From the IMG/VR virus record IMGVR_UViG_3300050821_006485, positions 1 through 64,000 of that record: a DNA stretch of 64,000 bases; one strand, 5' to 3'. This DNA is from a virus. This document shows positions 20,020 to 35,989 of the stretch, piece by piece. The notes below the pieces were generated by a model. It did not search any database. It was given only the letters and a program-made list of their open reading frames with translations, and was not told the origin of the DNA. Within the stretch, counting starts at the first letter, position 1. Each line of letters opens with the position of its first letter. Made by a program: the position numbers and the translations under genes.

Positions 20020-21955
20020 ATGCCAAGGAAAATGGCGAAAGAAGTTAAGGAAAGACCATCATATATAAATGCTGATGGTGTTCTTGACGTTTCGAAAATA
20101 TTTAAATTCCAACCGAAACAGACGGAATTACTACGAAACGTAGAAAGAAACGGACATACTTACGTGCAGCCGGTAGCAGAACAGTGCTTATCGGTTGGTG
20201 GTATCCGAGGCGGTAGTATTATTTGCTGCATTAGTTAGTAATAACTAATTGTAAACCTAGAGAATTCGGTGGAACGCCCGTAAGGGCCAATACCGAGCCG
20301 AGCTTCTGAAAAGAAGAAGGTGTAACGACTATCTCGAAAGAGAGTAGGGAACAGCGTTCCCGAAGCACTAGGGGTCCTGCAAAGGGATCAAGATATAGTC
20401 TGGACTTATTAGTAATAATAAGAGAGTAAGCGGACGCGGCTTATTTGTAACATCATTGAAAACTCTCGGATGGGTGATGTATGGAATCATGCATTACTGC
20501 TTAGCGTTTGATGGTTGTGATATTTTAGTGCTGCGTCGAACGTATAAGGAATTGGAATCGGGTGCGATACGGGATGCACTCAATTTCACTCCTAAGGAAT
20601 TATTTTCCTATGACACCACGCGGCACGTGATGAAGTTTTTAAACGGATCAAGAGTTGTATTTGCTCACTGCGAAAATCTTTCTGAAAGAGACATAAGCGC
20701 CTTCTTAGGTCAGGCTTATAGTTTTTGCGTCGTCGATGAGTGCGGTCAATTTTCTTCCGATGCTTGGTTGAGATTATATTCAAGAACTATTGTTAATGCT
20801 ACTTGTAAACCAGACGCTTGGGGTAACTTACCAATCCCAGCGATTGTCGGCTGCACAAATCCTATTGGTCCTCACTATGAATTCTATAGAACTTTGTTTG
20901 TACAGAAGGAGCCATGGAATAAGCCGGAAGACGCAAGGAAAGATGAGCTAACTGGAATTTGGTGGAGACCAGAAGCTGGTGAATGGCTTCCCATATATGA
21001 CCCCAGTAAGTATGCGTACCAGAGAACAACAGTATTAGATAACAAGGAATTACTTAAGCGCGATCCTGGAATTCTTTATAAGCTTAATAGCTTACCAAAA
21101 GCTAAGCGTGATAAAGAGCTTTTAGGACTTGACGGGCGTTATGAGGGCGCATATTTTGACTGCTTTGATCCTTACTATCATGTTATAAATTTGCGTGAAG
21201 ACCCGGAAGCCATTATATGGCAGCCTTCTTATCAAAAAGTTTGGTGCGGGCACGACTTTGGCGCAGGAGCCGGTGGTCACGCCAGTGCGGCATATTTGTT
21301 TACAAAGGCTTTAGTAAGGGATTCAACTGGCGGAGATAATTATAGAATTAAGACTGTATGCTTTAGAGAGATGGTTACTACTGCTGGACAGACCCATAAA
21401 GAGTGGGCCGCTATCTTAGCTAATGCTTGTAAGTTACCTAATGGTGTACCGATAAAGCCAAGCGCTATTTATTTTTCTCACGAAAAGTTTGCCAGGCAAA
21501 TGGCAGGATTTGGTCATACACCGGCGGACGAATATTCCAGAGAATTAAAAGCTTTAGGGTTGCCTCCGGTAGTAAGAGCCACAACAGATCGCATAGGAAG
21601 AGCCAGCCTTTTATATAATTCCTTCAAAAATGGGGATTTAGTAATCACAGACAATTGCAGAGAGATAATCCTTGCAATACCAAATTTGATGCGGGACGTT
21701 GACAATTTGGACGACGTGAGTAAGACGGACGCTAAGGGGGACGATTGTTATGATGGTTTCTCTTACGCGCACTACGGACAATATACTGCACAGAAAAAGC
21801 CAGATGTAGAAAGAATACACGAGCACGCCGCCGGGCTTGATCCACTCGCAAAGTTTTTTTATTTACAGAAGCAGCTAGCAACGCAGGCAAATAAGTCGGC
21901 AACGTTCAAACCATCAGAAATTCCCGTGTGGCAATCAAAATTAAATCAGCAATAA
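20020..21955 (+). CDS. terL: terminase large subunit, spliced: join(20020..20214,20459..21955), 563 aa
   Basis: Splicing restores Walker A GGIRGG|KT. Also LRRTYKEL, Walker B VVDE, CTNP, and nuclease GHDFG and DDCYD. Confidence 0.92.
20215..20458 (+). mobile_element. group I intron, ORF-less, 244 nt
   Basis: P1 GCGGU/GCUGC with U.G at the splice site; P7 GACTA/TAGTC within AAGATATAGTC; terminal omega-G; removal restores the frame. Confidence 0.92.
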
Positions 21956-32373: not shown

Positions 32374-33003
32374 ATGAACGGGATAATTTACAAAGTAACA
32401 AATATTGAATCTGGAACGTCTTACATTGGACAAACCACAAAAACATTGAAACAGAGGTGGACAGAGCATATTTATGATGCCACCGGTAATAGGAGCAAGG
32501 ATAAAGGATGTTATTTTCACCTTGCTATAAAGAAATATGGCCCAGAGGCATTTAAGTTGATTGTTCTGCAAGAATGCTTAAATAAAGAGGCGTTGGACTC
32601 AGTAGAAAAGTTCTATATTTCCCATTTTAATACGGTTCGTCCCTTTGGTTATAATTTGTCTCTCGGAGGCTCTGGAGTAATGCACGGTAGGAAAATGAGT
32701 GCAGAAGCCAGAGCAAAAATTAGCGCGGGGCTTATGGGAAGACCGGGAGCACAATTTAGTCATACCCCAGAAGCCAGAGCAAAAATAAGCGCATCCCTTA
32801 TGGGTAACAAAAGGTCAGTAGGTAGAAAACTTTCAGATGAAACTAAGGCTAAGATGAGAGCCGCTCATTTAGGAAGAACCTACAAAAAGAAAGACAAAAG
32901 TTTAGATTCAAGCAACGATGCTCATGATAGTGGCGAAAACACTTTAAATATGCGGATTGAGAAAGTTGCGAGTACTAAAGATGACTCAGCGATAGGCCAG
33001 TAA
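32374..33003 (+). CDS. GIY-YIG homing endonuclease with NUMOD3 repeats
   Basis: IIYKVTN...SYIGQT...R, AIKKYG, E..YI, GYNL..GG; start ATG 32374. Confidence 0.9.
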   Translation: MNGIIYKVTNIESGTSYIGQTTKTLKQRWTEHIYDATGNRSKDKGCYFHLAIKKYGPEAFKLIVLQECLNKEALDSVEKFYISHFNTVRPFGYNLSLGGSGVMHGRKMSAEARAKISAGLMGRPGAQFSHTPEARAKISASLMGNKRSVGRKLSDETKAKMRAAHLGRTYKKKDKSLDSSNDAHDSGENTLNMRIEKVASTKDDSAIGQ

Positions 33004-33060: not shown

Positions 33061-35330
33061 ATGCCATTACTTGAGGCTGCTGTAGAAGCAGTCGAACTTG
33101 ATGCATTTGCTAAGGAAATCCCTAGGTAATAAGGTCGGGGATTTTATGCCAAAAATACTTAGGACCTAGTATTTCATGGAACTACAGCATATTCCATGTT
33201 CAAGGCAGAGGCTCAATATTAGGGCCTCGATAAACCCGCTCTAATTGTCTCGAAATCTGAAATGACAACGAGGCGGAAGTCAAGTTTATTTGTAACAAAA
33301 CTTGACACCGTGAGAGATCAAGCGAGAGGGAGCCAAAAGGCTATGCAATGATCCGAGCTGCATGAAACAGTAACATGCAGAGGTTAGCAGAAATGACTAA
33401 TCCAAAATACAGTAACAAAGCTGACTAATATTCCTGTGAGCAATCAGTCACAGGCAGGCGGAGTAACTCGTCCGTCATTCCGCATCCCGTTTAGGGTGCA
33501 GGCTGGCGCGTCTATCTCCCAGGGAACCGGAAATGCCGACTCCATGAACCGAGGCACTGGAAGTAAATGGGCTTCCTTTGCGCTAGCACCTGTTTACCTA
33601 TTTAACGTCTAAAAATTTCATGGACGTTTAAAATTTCGCTGTATCGGTGGAACGCCTGAAAAGGCCAATACCGAGGCAACCTGCCTAGGCAGAGAGTCCG
33701 TAACGACTACACGCGAAACAGGCATAACGCTTGATGATATAGTCTGAACTGCATGGTAACATGCAGAAGGCAGCAGAAATGACTGCCTCATAACCTAAAG
33801 TTATGTAACAATTTTTGGTGAAATTTCCTGGCTCGCCCAGGCTTCCACGGATAGCAAGCAACGCGGTCTCTTCGCCGTAAAAGCCCAGGAGATGAAGAAC
33901 TCTTTGGATGCTGCAATGCAGGGCATCGAGGGGTTAATAAATTCCGACGGGAGTGGTATGATCGACCAAATCCCGGCCACCGCAGTCATTAACAACGGTA
34001 CGGGTACTGGTGACAGTACCTCCAGCATCGTTGGGATGAACGTGGCGGTAGCATTCACCGACCAACAGACGGTAACGTTCTGGACGGTTGGTGGTGTTCA
34101 GCGTACGACCGGCGTATCCTCGGCAGTAGTTAGCTACTCCGATGGACCGAGCAACACTTTGTTCTTCAGCACCGCCCTACCGACCGGTGTGGCAGTAACG
34201 GATTACATCGTGGTGAACGGCGCGACCTACGGCTCTGGTGCCTCTATTTTGGGCATCAAGGCTTGGGACGTGAACAGCAATACCGGGAGTATCGCCGGGC
34301 TTAACCGAGCGACTTACCCAGGCCGTCTTAGCACGCCTACCATTAACTTGGCGGGTGCCGCTATTACGCCAGGCATTGCCCAGCGAGCAGAAGTGCTCCT
34401 AGGCCGTGCGTTGGGTCCTGATGCCGACAGCATTAAGTCCGGCATTTGGTATGGGCCGCCCGAGCAAGCCTTTGCGCAGAGCAATCTGATGTGAACTAAA
34501 CGCATCATCAACTGGTAACAGTTGAAAGTAAACCAAGAGAATTCGGTGGAACACCCAATAAGGTCAATACCGAGCCGAGCCTGTTAGCGCAGGAAGGTGT
34601 AACGACTATCTCGAAAGAGAGTAGGGTCTAAGTAGACTCGAAGCACTTGGCACCCGTAAGGGTTGAAGATATAGTCTGTTCTCGCAGGTAACTGTGAGAG
34701 GGTAAGCGGAAACGGCTTGCCCGCAACGAACAAGACAACGTTCAAATTGCGAACGCACAGGAAATCAAGGGCGATAAAACGCTAGACATGTCCAAGAAGT
34801 ATTTTTCGGATTAACAATAGTCCCCTCAATCGGAAACGGTTGAATGAAAACCGAGAGAATTCAGGGAAACGCCTTAGTGGCCAATCCTGAGCCGAGCCTC
34901 AAAAGAGGAAGGTGCAACGACTATCCTGTAATGGGAGTAGGGGTCAGTGACCTCGAAGCACTTGGGACCCGTAAGGGTTATGATATAGTCTGAGCTTGTA
35001 GGTAACTACAAGAGTTTAGATGGAAACGATCTAAACGTAACGTAACTGACGTTTGGTGGCCGTAAGTATCACAAGAGTTGGACAGCAACCGCAAGCCGAA
35101 TGGATTTGCTGGTGCTAGACAACTGGTACATAGGAGAGCTGTCACCGCTAGAACTGTACGATTTTGGCGGCGGCAATGTGGTAGCTCCCGTGCCCGATAT
35201 TGGCAACGGGACTTCAAATGGTAGTTATCTTACCTCCCACATGTTTGCTTATAACACATGCTTCAACCTGGCTAATGCAGCTCCGCGAGCTGGCTTATAC
35301 GTTCAGAATGCAGCTGTGCCAACTGTGTAG
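33061..35330 (+). CDS. major capsid protein (putative), six exons: join(33061..33123,33163..33213,33424..33610,33818..34492,34735..34811,35049..35330), 444 aa
   Basis: Removing five U|...G| introns gives one continuous 1335-nt frame from MPLLEAAVEAVELDAFAKEIP|DLVF to YVQNAAVPTV. Its position after portal/scaffold and its size fit an HK97-type MCP. Confidence 0.8.
33124..33162 (+). other. 39-nt core-less group I-like mini-intron
   Basis: Three in-frame stops; P1 AAAUCCCU/GGGGAUUU with U.G at the junction; P10 AGGUC/GACCU; ends in G. Confidence 0.75.
33214..33423 (+). mobile_element. group I intron (MCP intron 2), 210 nt
   Basis: P1 GAGGCU/GGCCUC, P10 AAUAUUAG/CUAAUAUU, variant P7 GATCA/TGATC, P9.0 AGC/GCU, omega-G. 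Confidence 0.85.
33611..33817 (+). mobile_element. group I intron (MCP intron 3), 207 nt
   Basis: P1 AACGUCU/GGACGUU, P10 AAUUUCA/UGAAAUU, GACTA...GATATAGTC. Confidence 0.9.
34493..34734 (+). mobile_element. group I intron (MCP intron 4), 242 nt
   Basis: P1 GAUGU/GCAUC; core GAGAATTCGGTGGAAC...GACTA...GATATAGTC homologous to the TerL intron. Confidence 0.9.
34812..35048 (+). mobile_element. group I intron (MCP intron 5), 237 nt
   Basis: P1 GGAU/GUCC; homologous core with compensatory changes (TCAGGG/CCTGA in place of TCGGT/ACCGA). Confidence 0.9.
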
Positions 35331-35413: not shown

Positions 35414-35456
35414 AGTGGGAGGAGACCTTGAACTTCTCCCACTATATTTCAAGGAG
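35414..35456 (+). promoter_or_regulatory. SD-masking pseudoknot (HEG leader 3)
   Basis: Stem AGTGGGAGGAG/CTTCTCCCACT; loop CCTTGAA is complementary to TTCAAGG(AG) at 35448-35454. Confidence 0.75.
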
Positions 35457-35461
35457 AACGA

Positions 35462-35989
35462 ATGGAAAGCAAAGTTTGTACCAATTGCAGTCTAGAAAAA
35501 CCATTTTCTGAATTTCAAGAAAATGAAAGATATGCGGACGGGTATTCTACGTGGTGTAAGGAGTGCCATAAGCAAGCTTCTACAAAAAGTAGAAAAAAGT
35601 TATCTAAAGAAAATCCTAATTATCACAAAGATAATGCTCTTAAACACAAACATAAAATAAGTTTAGAACAGTTTGAAGAAAAGCAAGTAGAGCAGGGCGG
35701 ACATTGCGCTTTGTGTTTGGCTACTAAAAGCAGTAATGGTGATAGACTAGGAGTAGACCACGATCACAGAATTTGTCCCGGAAAGTATGCTTGCGATAAG
35801 TGTCGAAGAGGTTTATTGTGCAGTTCTTGTAATGCTCGATTGGGCTACCTAGAGGGGTTTTTAGAAGAAGCTTTTGTATTTCCTTTCTTAGGCAGAGGAC
35901 AGTGGATACGGAAAGCAGTAGAATACTTAAACTACTATAAGAATGCATTATATCAAGCGTCTCTTTTGGAGTCTACCCAATGCAAGTAA
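35462..35989 (+). CDS. endonuclease VII-family (His-Me) homing endonuclease
   Basis: CTNC...CKEC, Q.G.CALC, VDHDH, RGLLC..CN..LG. Confidence 0.88.
   Translation: MESKVCTNCSLEKPFSEFQENERYADGYSTWCKECHKQASTKSRKKLSKENPNYHKDNALKHKHKISLEQFEEKQVEQGGHCALCLATKSSNGDRLGVDHDHRICPGKYACDKCRRGLLCSSCNARLGYLEGFLEEAFVFPFLGRGQWIRKAVEYLNYYKNALYQASLLESTQCK

Follow-up and report, generated by a model that had tools for sequence, protein, structure and literature searches.

A candidate core-less group I mini-intron in a phage capsid gene, probably excised by the core of its downstream neighbour

The capsid gene on a 64,000-nucleotide (nt) stretch of viral DNA (IMG/VR record IMGVR_UViG_3300050821_006485, positions 1 to 64,000; hereafter the window) is interrupted after codon 21 by a 39-nt insert, 33124–33162, that carries the splice-site signals of a group I intron and none of its catalytic core. 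Sequence comparison across related capsid genes, together with predicted folding, indicates that this insert is probably a non-autonomous group I mini-intron, excised in cis by the core of intron 2, a full-size intron lying beyond a 17-codon micro-exon. The layout of the region is given in Table 1.

Table 1. Features of the interrupted 5′ part of the capsid gene and of the gene upstream of it (window coordinates; P1 and P10, group I helices; MFE, minimum free energy; HMM, hidden Markov model)
Feature	Position	Strand	Basis or remark
Free-standing GIY-YIG/NUMOD3 homing-endonuclease gene	32374–33003	+	Pfam; ends 58 nt before the capsid start
Capsid exon 1	33061–33123	+	21 codons, ends ..KEIP; peptide kept in intron-less relatives and in insert-bearing alleles
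Candidate core-less mini-intron, 39 nt	33124–33162	+	Between capsid codons 21 and 22
Mini-intron: loop	33124–33131
Mini-intron: P10 guide	33132–33136
Mini-intron: P1 guide	33137–33145
Mini-intron: tail	33146–33161
Mini-intron: tail segment 1	33147–33150	+	Pairs with 33204–33207 (tether or closing helix; MFE and centroid)
Mini-intron: tail segment 2	33153–33159	+	Pairs with exon 33168–33174 (predicted fold)
Mini-intron: terminal G	33162
Micro-exon 2, 17 codons, DLVFHG..KAEA	33163–33213	+	Homolog alignment
Intron 2, proposed helper	33214–33423	+	Compact group I-type; family HMM, covariation
Capsid exon 3	33424–33610	+	Homolog alignment

Translation of the capsid gene starts at the ATG at 33061, and codon 21 is CCT; the insert that follows contains three in-frame stop codons (TAA, TAA and TAG). 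The end of exon 1 (33115–33123) pairs with the P1 guide to form a helix of 8 bp, or 9 with an additional G·U, and the U·G pair of this P1 falls exactly on the 5′ junction. Abutting the P1 guide on its 5′ side is the P10 guide, which pairs with the first bases of the micro-exon (33163–33167) at five of five positions, all Watson-Crick: a single 13-base guide thus pairs with both flanking exons. The last base of the insert is a G, in the position of omega-G. The insert, its stops and these signals had been described in an initial annotation of the window, and both sequence and coordinates were verified. An Rfam scan and the predicted fold detected no catalytic core (P3–P9 with the guanosine-binding P7) within the 39 nt: RF00028 gives no match, either at the gathering threshold or with E≤1, and P1 is the only helix that the fold shows in the insert, with nothing resembling P7.

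A bare combination of P1, P10 and terminal G is matched by chance about once per shuffled 64-kb window (both strands) and was not used as evidence; other matches to it, for example 20481–20510 (in-frame coding sequence inside the open reading frame (ORF) 20399–21955), look like chance. The boundaries of the insert are, in contrast, independent of the motif because they are fixed by intron-less homologs. The probability that a random 39-mer at these boundaries would carry such a guide and a terminal G is ∼6e-7. In the 101-kb genome no second mini-intron was found.

The homologs were obtained by searching 1.8 billion representative proteins with capsid exon 4, which returned 95 relatives. Full-length homologs (436–457 amino acids) read M-x-..EAAVE..-K-x-I/L-P-D-L-..Y..FK..A..P.. 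without interruption, that is, proteins of ∼440 residues that are continuous through ..K-E/Q-I/L-P-D-L... When the 17-codon block is counted, residue 8 of the exon 4 query falls at position 106 of the window protein and at 101–109 in the homologs. No close relative of the capsid exon was found in phage GenBank. At the DNA level related loci from viral contigs (94) and metagenomes (80) were compared. In ∼130 of them exons 1–3 are one unbroken 300-nt stretch encoding the same peptide; exact removal of 33124–33162 therefore restores the native protein (..KEIP-DLVFHG..), which is contiguous with the intron-less homologs as the initial annotation had predicted. The 17-residue block, likewise proposed there as an exon, is present in the homologs and joined directly to ..KEIP. 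We considered that 33124–33423 might be one long intron in which the block is a chance ORF, and ruled this out: the block is conserved, is contiguous with its neighbours in intron-less homologs and differs from relatives only synonymously.

The same protein is maintained in genes that carry an insert. After in silico removal of the mini-introns the alleles with the usual start share the N-terminal peptide M-A/P-L-L/V-EAAVEAVELDAFAKEIP, with many synonymous codon differences (17 alleles were compared; L263 and L277 yielded no ORF call). Loci L009, L047 and L074 have the same peptide from AVEAVELDA onward, downstream of a full intron at a site, Z, that follows codon 6. Between the micro-exon of the window and that of L023 eight codons differ, all eight synonymously. 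These codon comparisons indicate that exon 1 and micro-exon 2 are under purifying selection in mini-bearing alleles and that translation follows the conserved frame through both. As the functional outcome, this rules out an mRNA that keeps the insert as well as one that skips the micro-exon.

The insert is one member of a family. Every related locus entry that is interrupted within the 300-nt region (43 of 43; 25 plus 18, some of them copies of the same contig) carries a pair of elements: an insert of 38–49 nt and, 17–69 nt downstream, a full-size intron of 194–863 nt. Seventeen distinct mini-intron alleles were recovered in this way, plus one from a map of the whole gene, and in every one of these the last base of the 5′ exon is a U opposite G, the P10 and P1 guides are contiguous and the insert ends in G. 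Inserts of this kind recur across many mutually independent metagenome contigs, which disposes of the concern, raised in the initial annotation, that this one is an assembly artefact. Mini-introns occupy two sites: A, after codon 15/16, and B, the site used in the window and also by a 49-nt insert in L005, L094 and L212. Full introns occupy B, C (the site of intron 2) and C′ (12 nt upstream of C), and those at the three sites belong to a single family. The elements occur in five combinations, A+B, A+C′, A+C, B+C′ and B+C, with mini-introns and full introns in a ratio of ∼1:1. Each full intron at B, C′ or C has a mini-intron upstream and each mini-intron locus has a full intron downstream; no mini-intron without a downstream partner was found among the related loci.

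Mapping the whole gene in ∼175 loci places this association in context. More than 12 recurrent full-intron sites are present, but inserts passing the guide test (pairing with both flanking exons) occur only at A and B, always 5′ of an intron at B, C′ or C, and the other >12 intron sites have no mini-intron. The whole-gene DNA alignment produced many spurious short ‘insertions’ in divergent loci, and those retained are the ones that pass the guide test. Family introns elsewhere, such as those at site Z, likewise occur without a mini-intron. Confinement of the mini-introns to the B, C′ and C neighbours means that the association is with one particular neighbour and not with group I introns generally. 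Scanning viral contigs for the site-B guide as a DNA pattern gave mostly noise, with at least two new loci among the matches listed.

The guides change in step with the exons they pair with. Among the 15 site-A alleles, P1 positions 0–5 and P10 positions 0–4 are paired in 14 or 15, with at most three types of pair at any position; at P10 position 2, for instance, the pair is G-C in four alleles, C-G in four and U-A in seven. The guide follows synonymous changes in the exon (Leu CTT/CTA, Phe TTT/TTC, Ala GCT/GCC/GCA). With its own exons a guide forms a mean of 13.8 contiguous bp, compared with 6.5–7.8 bp when guides are swapped among alleles. The same holds at site B, where the window has exon GACCU and guide AGGUC and L005 has exon GAUCU and guide AGAUU: a C to U change in the exon is accompanied by G to A in the guide.

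The tail of the mini-intron connects it to its neighbour. Folding of 33108–33232 (−35.6 kcal/mol, z=−2.4) gives four elements in both the MFE and the centroid structure, in the order mini-intron P1 hairpin, closing helix formed by tail segment 1, inner hairpin formed by tail segment 2, and P1 of intron 2. The closing helix encloses the whole micro-exon and is followed immediately by the intron 2 P1 hairpin, while the 8-nt loop of the inner hairpin contains the terminal G and the P10 target. Within the micro-exon the first 5 nt are the P10 target, 33204–33207 are the tether partner and 33208–33213 are the 5′ strand of intron 2 P1. A three-part topology (mini-intron P1, tail/exon helix, neighbour P1) is found in all of the 17 alleles folded except L240, where the neighbour boundary was misplaced in the fold, and it is retained although the micro-exons are 18, 39, 51, 56 or 69 nt long and unrelated in sequence. 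In all five site combinations the tail pairs with exon bases adjoining the P1 of the neighbour. Compared with 3000 shuffles per tail, the tail/exon pairing has p=0.0003–0.26 per class and a Fisher combined p of 4.5e-9 over six classes. Compensatory changes are present in both helices: G-C to A-U in the tether helix between L023 and L042, and U-A to C-G in the inner hairpin between the window and L005. A further 7-bp hairpin, 33175–33198, lies wholly in coding micro-exon 2, and its CCAUGUU is the P1 5′ strand for the site-C′ introns of relatives.

Intron 2 itself is not recognized by Rfam: RF00028 finds nothing in 33214–33423, whether at the gathering threshold or relaxed to E≤1, and the model also misses this intron family in seven relatives. 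An HMM built from the full introns of sites B, C′ and C nevertheless matches the window at 33208–33414 (E=8e-43). Introns 3–5 match it only partially, in the 3′ half, and a scan of the complete genome (101,202 bp) shows intron 2 to be its sole family member. RNAalifold applied to nine members returned 36 consensus pairs, 21 of them with compensatory changes, and a helix order (P1, P3, P4/5, P6, P9, P9.1) expected of a compact group I RNA. P7 of intron 2 (33316–33320 with 33349–33353) is GAUCA/UGAUC where relatives have GACUA/UAGUC. Two adjacent pairs are exchanged and all five pairs retained, a double compensatory swap which argues that the core of intron 2 is under selection. By family profile and covariation, then, intron 2 is identified as a structured group I-type RNA. 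With the five RF00028 matches in the window, three of which are in the capsid gene (33600, 34483 and 34803), it makes up the six full introns counted in the initial annotation.

Family introns are typically ∼195–235 nt long (for example L023 3614–3829 and L061 1287–1480), with ∼150 HMM matches in the fetched loci at >12 capsid-gene sites. The full introns end in GUAACA followed by 3–8 nt and then G. Applied to intron 3 (33611–33817), this rule puts the 3′ splice site after 33817 (..FNV|CEISW), in agreement with homolog P0032; the Rfam alignment of intron 3 ends earlier, at 33766.

A mechanism can be proposed from these relationships. Of a group I intron, the mini-intron would retain the substrate side alone: the P1 hairpin and its U·G, the contiguous P10 guide and the terminal G. 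One tail helix would set the 3′ splice site in a hairpin loop, and the other would close off the micro-exon and bring the mini-intron P1 beside that of intron 2. Read from 33123 onward, the region would resemble one large group I intron in which the mini-intron P1 serves as P1, the micro-exon domain is P2-like, the P1 of intron 2 is a P2.1-like hairpin and the core of intron 2 follows. Placed at P1, P2 and P2.1 positions in this way, docking of the upstream P1 would be geometrically ordinary. The intron 2 core would dock the mini-intron P1, guanosine attack and exon ligation would take place there, and intron 2 would then, or also, splice itself. We infer that excision takes place in the RNA and by group I chemistry, with intron 2 as the probable catalyst; the order of the two events is a further part of the proposal. 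Separate elements of such a scheme are documented: guide sequence can be supplied in trans to a group I core (PMC2709566), an internal segment can be removed by a ribozyme acting in trans (PMC2532722), and engineered tandem introns across a 24-nt exon act as one cooperative ribozyme (PMC10136302).

Several observations weigh against this proposal. The tether helix in the window is just 4 bp and on its own reaches p=0.024. Were intron 2 to splice itself first, its core would be freed and the mini-intron left to be handled in trans. The UA that precedes the terminal G of the mini-intron matches the intron 2 partner (the P9.0 partner, used by intron 2’s own CU) at one of two positions, an imperfect fit already pointed out in the initial annotation; the match, which is perfect in L005 and L060/L061, was judged by eye and not counted as evidence. 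The database protein P0004 begins MPRL|DLIFKG.., inside an interruption at site B, in a gene with no intron at site C, and may represent a mini-intron without the usual neighbour. Finally, the main alternative explanation for co-occurrence of the two elements is not catalytic dependence: they could be linked as parts of one homing cassette made up of endonuclease, mini-intron and intron.

Other means of dealing with the insert (trans action, a minimal self-splicer, translational bypass, excision by proteins and non-removal) have to be weighed, and taken together we regard them as clearly the less probable side. The first is trans excision, for which any group I core in the infected cell would serve, whether that of introns 3–5, of other introns or of released intron 2. 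Five more group I introns lie in the window, four sharing a transcript with the mini-intron, and docking of P1 into a core is largely sequence-independent (PMC2709566, PMC2532722). Yet mini-introns are never found beside the >12 other intron sites or in loci that have only those introns, and their tails pair specifically with exon bases adjoining the P1 of the neighbour. The initial annotation had named intron 2 as the simplest helper while allowing that any sibling could act in trans; the strict co-occurrence and the tether favour the first suggestion over the second. The comparative evidence thus favours action in cis by the neighbour, and we consider trans action unlikely.

Considerably less probable is that the insert is a minimal self-splicer needing no separate core and aided by pairing with its 3′ exon, as has been claimed for the 67-nt PaSSU intron of Phialophora. 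Fungal introns of 63–75 nt with P1, P7, P10 and an intron/3′-exon helix are reported, and in vitro splicing of PaSSU has been cited (PMC3160393); the mini-intron is also predicted to pair with its own 3′ exon. However, it has only 39 nt and no P7-like or internal helix beyond P1, and self-splicing would leave its strict dependence on a neighbouring full intron unexplained.

We give equally little credence to translational bypass of the T4 gene 60 type, in which ribosomes would leave the message at codon 21 and resume 39 nt further on, the insert serving as an immunity spacer against an endonuclease. Codon 21, the take-off codon, sits within a stem and is followed by a rare AGG and two stops (AGG TAA TAA); the insert is AU-rich in its 3′ part, and there is an adjacent free-standing endonuclease gene. 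These features are all listed for gene 60 cassettes (10.1101/2022.08.31.505936). A group I P1 would give the AGG TAA TAA and the codon in a stem too. What is missing is a matched landing codon: TAG precedes GAC, and the only CCT (33165–33167) is out of frame with DLVFHG. L005 has no CCN near the point of resumption, and in none of the alleles does a matched codon pair restore the conserved peptide. Nor does bypass explain the invariable U and G boundaries or guides that covary with both exons. It was rejected on the absence of matched take-off and landing codons from every allele.

Slightly more improbable again is excision by proteins, an RNA endonuclease recognizing two hairpins and an RNA ligase such as RtcB rejoining the exons. 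The predicted position of the 3′ splice site in a hairpin loop would suit such a reaction, but the signals match exactly those of the bona fide group I introns next to it, and the predicted fold contains no archaeal-type bulge-helix-bulge (two 3-nt bulges flanking a 4-bp helix): a 9-bp stem ends at the 5′ site, and an 8-nt hairpin loop holds the 3′ site. Least credible of all is that the insert is never removed, the gene being disabled or the capsid protein starting downstream with the first 21 codons as a remnant; the stop codons, and nothing more, speak for it. Against it, the exon 1 peptide is conserved and under apparent purifying selection, mini-bearing alleles differing at many synonymous positions; no in-frame start codon lies between the insert and exon 2; the searched region shows a single copy of the capsid gene; and many contigs share the arrangement. 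A downstream start, a possibility raised by the initial annotation, was ruled out.

The proposed excision of the mini-intron by its neighbour can be set against known systems. Like the group I introns of phages (T4 td, nrdB and sunY, Twort orf142; RF00028), the mini-intron has a P1 with U·G, one guide for both P1 and P10 and a terminal G, and it resides in a phage gene with a GIY-YIG homing endonuclease close by. Unlike them it lacks P3–P9 and a guanosine-binding site, and its 39 nt are about one-fifth of the smallest autonomous introns in the window (∼200 nt). In a literature search no paper was found that describes a phage group I intron without a core, or a core-less mini-intron tied to a full intron further downstream. 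Among published natural precedents the nearest are the degenerate group I introns of fungal small-subunit ribosomal DNA, 56–81 nt long with P1, P7, P10 and an intron/3′-exon helix, known from Phialophora (PaSSU, 63–75 nt, reported to self-splice), Arthonia and Porpidia (PMC3160393). The mini-intron shares P1, P10 and, by prediction, the helix with the 3′ exon. It differs in being shorter, in lacking a P7, in interrupting a phage protein-coding gene and in being always paired with a full intron; the fungal introns have a putative P7, are located in rRNA and have no reported pairing with a neighbouring full intron.

Tandem introns around a micro-exon are known from Twort orf142 and Coxiella 23S (reviewed in PMC10136302). 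There too a micro-exon separates two introns (it is 51 nt here and 17–69 nt in relatives), and adjacent introns have been shown to cooperate as one ribozyme; both of those introns carry a full core, whereas the upstream mini-intron has none. The trans guides used with the Azoarcus ribozyme (PMC2709566) and trans-excision-splicing (PMC2532722) are alike in that a core uses a guide or segment outside its own P1. Those systems were engineered in vitro; the present one is natural, and the mini-intron is proposed to supply its own guide and borrow only the core. The 50-nt cassette of T4 gene 60 with MobA (10.1101/2022.08.31.505936) is also a short, stop-bearing insert in an essential phage gene next to a free-standing endonuclease, and both inserts may act as immunity spacers. 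In gene 60 the take-off and landing codons match and the ribosome skips the cassette; the mini-intron has group I splice signals and no matched codons.

If excision in RNA is true, the mini-intron would be a natural intron reduced to splice-site recognition and reliant on a separate RNA for catalysis. Such outsourcing has been proposed to underlie the transition from group II introns to the spliceosome, and it would here be extended to group I introns and to phage. One group I core would process two substrate helices in a single transcript, and an essential virion gene would depend on a neighbouring selfish element. There are consequences for annotation as well. Inserts of 38–49 nt make capsid genes seem frameshifted or truncated to gene callers (P0004 is an example), and the helper family is invisible to RF00028, so both elements are mis-annotated in viral metagenomes. 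Full introns at site Z (L009 3275–3479, L006 3502–3712, and in L047 and L061) similarly cause gene callers to report a false N-terminus, MTKPYSVRNKM.., read from the intron.

The gene immediately upstream of the capsid gene may bear on why such inserts exist. Its GIY-YIG product is 64–68% identical to an endonuclease encoded inside the 804–863-nt site-B introns of relatives, and in L060, L144 and L205 the capsid gene is preceded by a free-standing gene of this class. Members of this lineage include L025 3239–3748 and L060 912–1418 besides the window gene. A lineage that is free-standing in some loci and intronic in others implies that the nuclease gene has moved into or out of the intron. Pairing with a GIY-YIG nuclease offers a possible reason for the inserts: they may be immunity spacers, like the gene 60 cassette. 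By analogy, and speculatively, mini-intron, intron and nuclease may travel as one homing cassette in which the mini-intron is a spliceable spacer in the nuclease target.

The broadest form of the proposal is that of one ribozyme for two introns: a natural class of core-less introns whose catalysis is outsourced downstream by means of a dedicated tether, which may spread with a GIY-YIG nuclease as spliceable spacers and would be widespread in phage capsid genes and missed by annotation. For this wider statement we consider the chances evenly balanced. Directly 3′ of the capsid gene, at 35432–35989, is an endonuclease VII-like gene; most relatives, with or without capsid-gene introns, have a related copy in this position.

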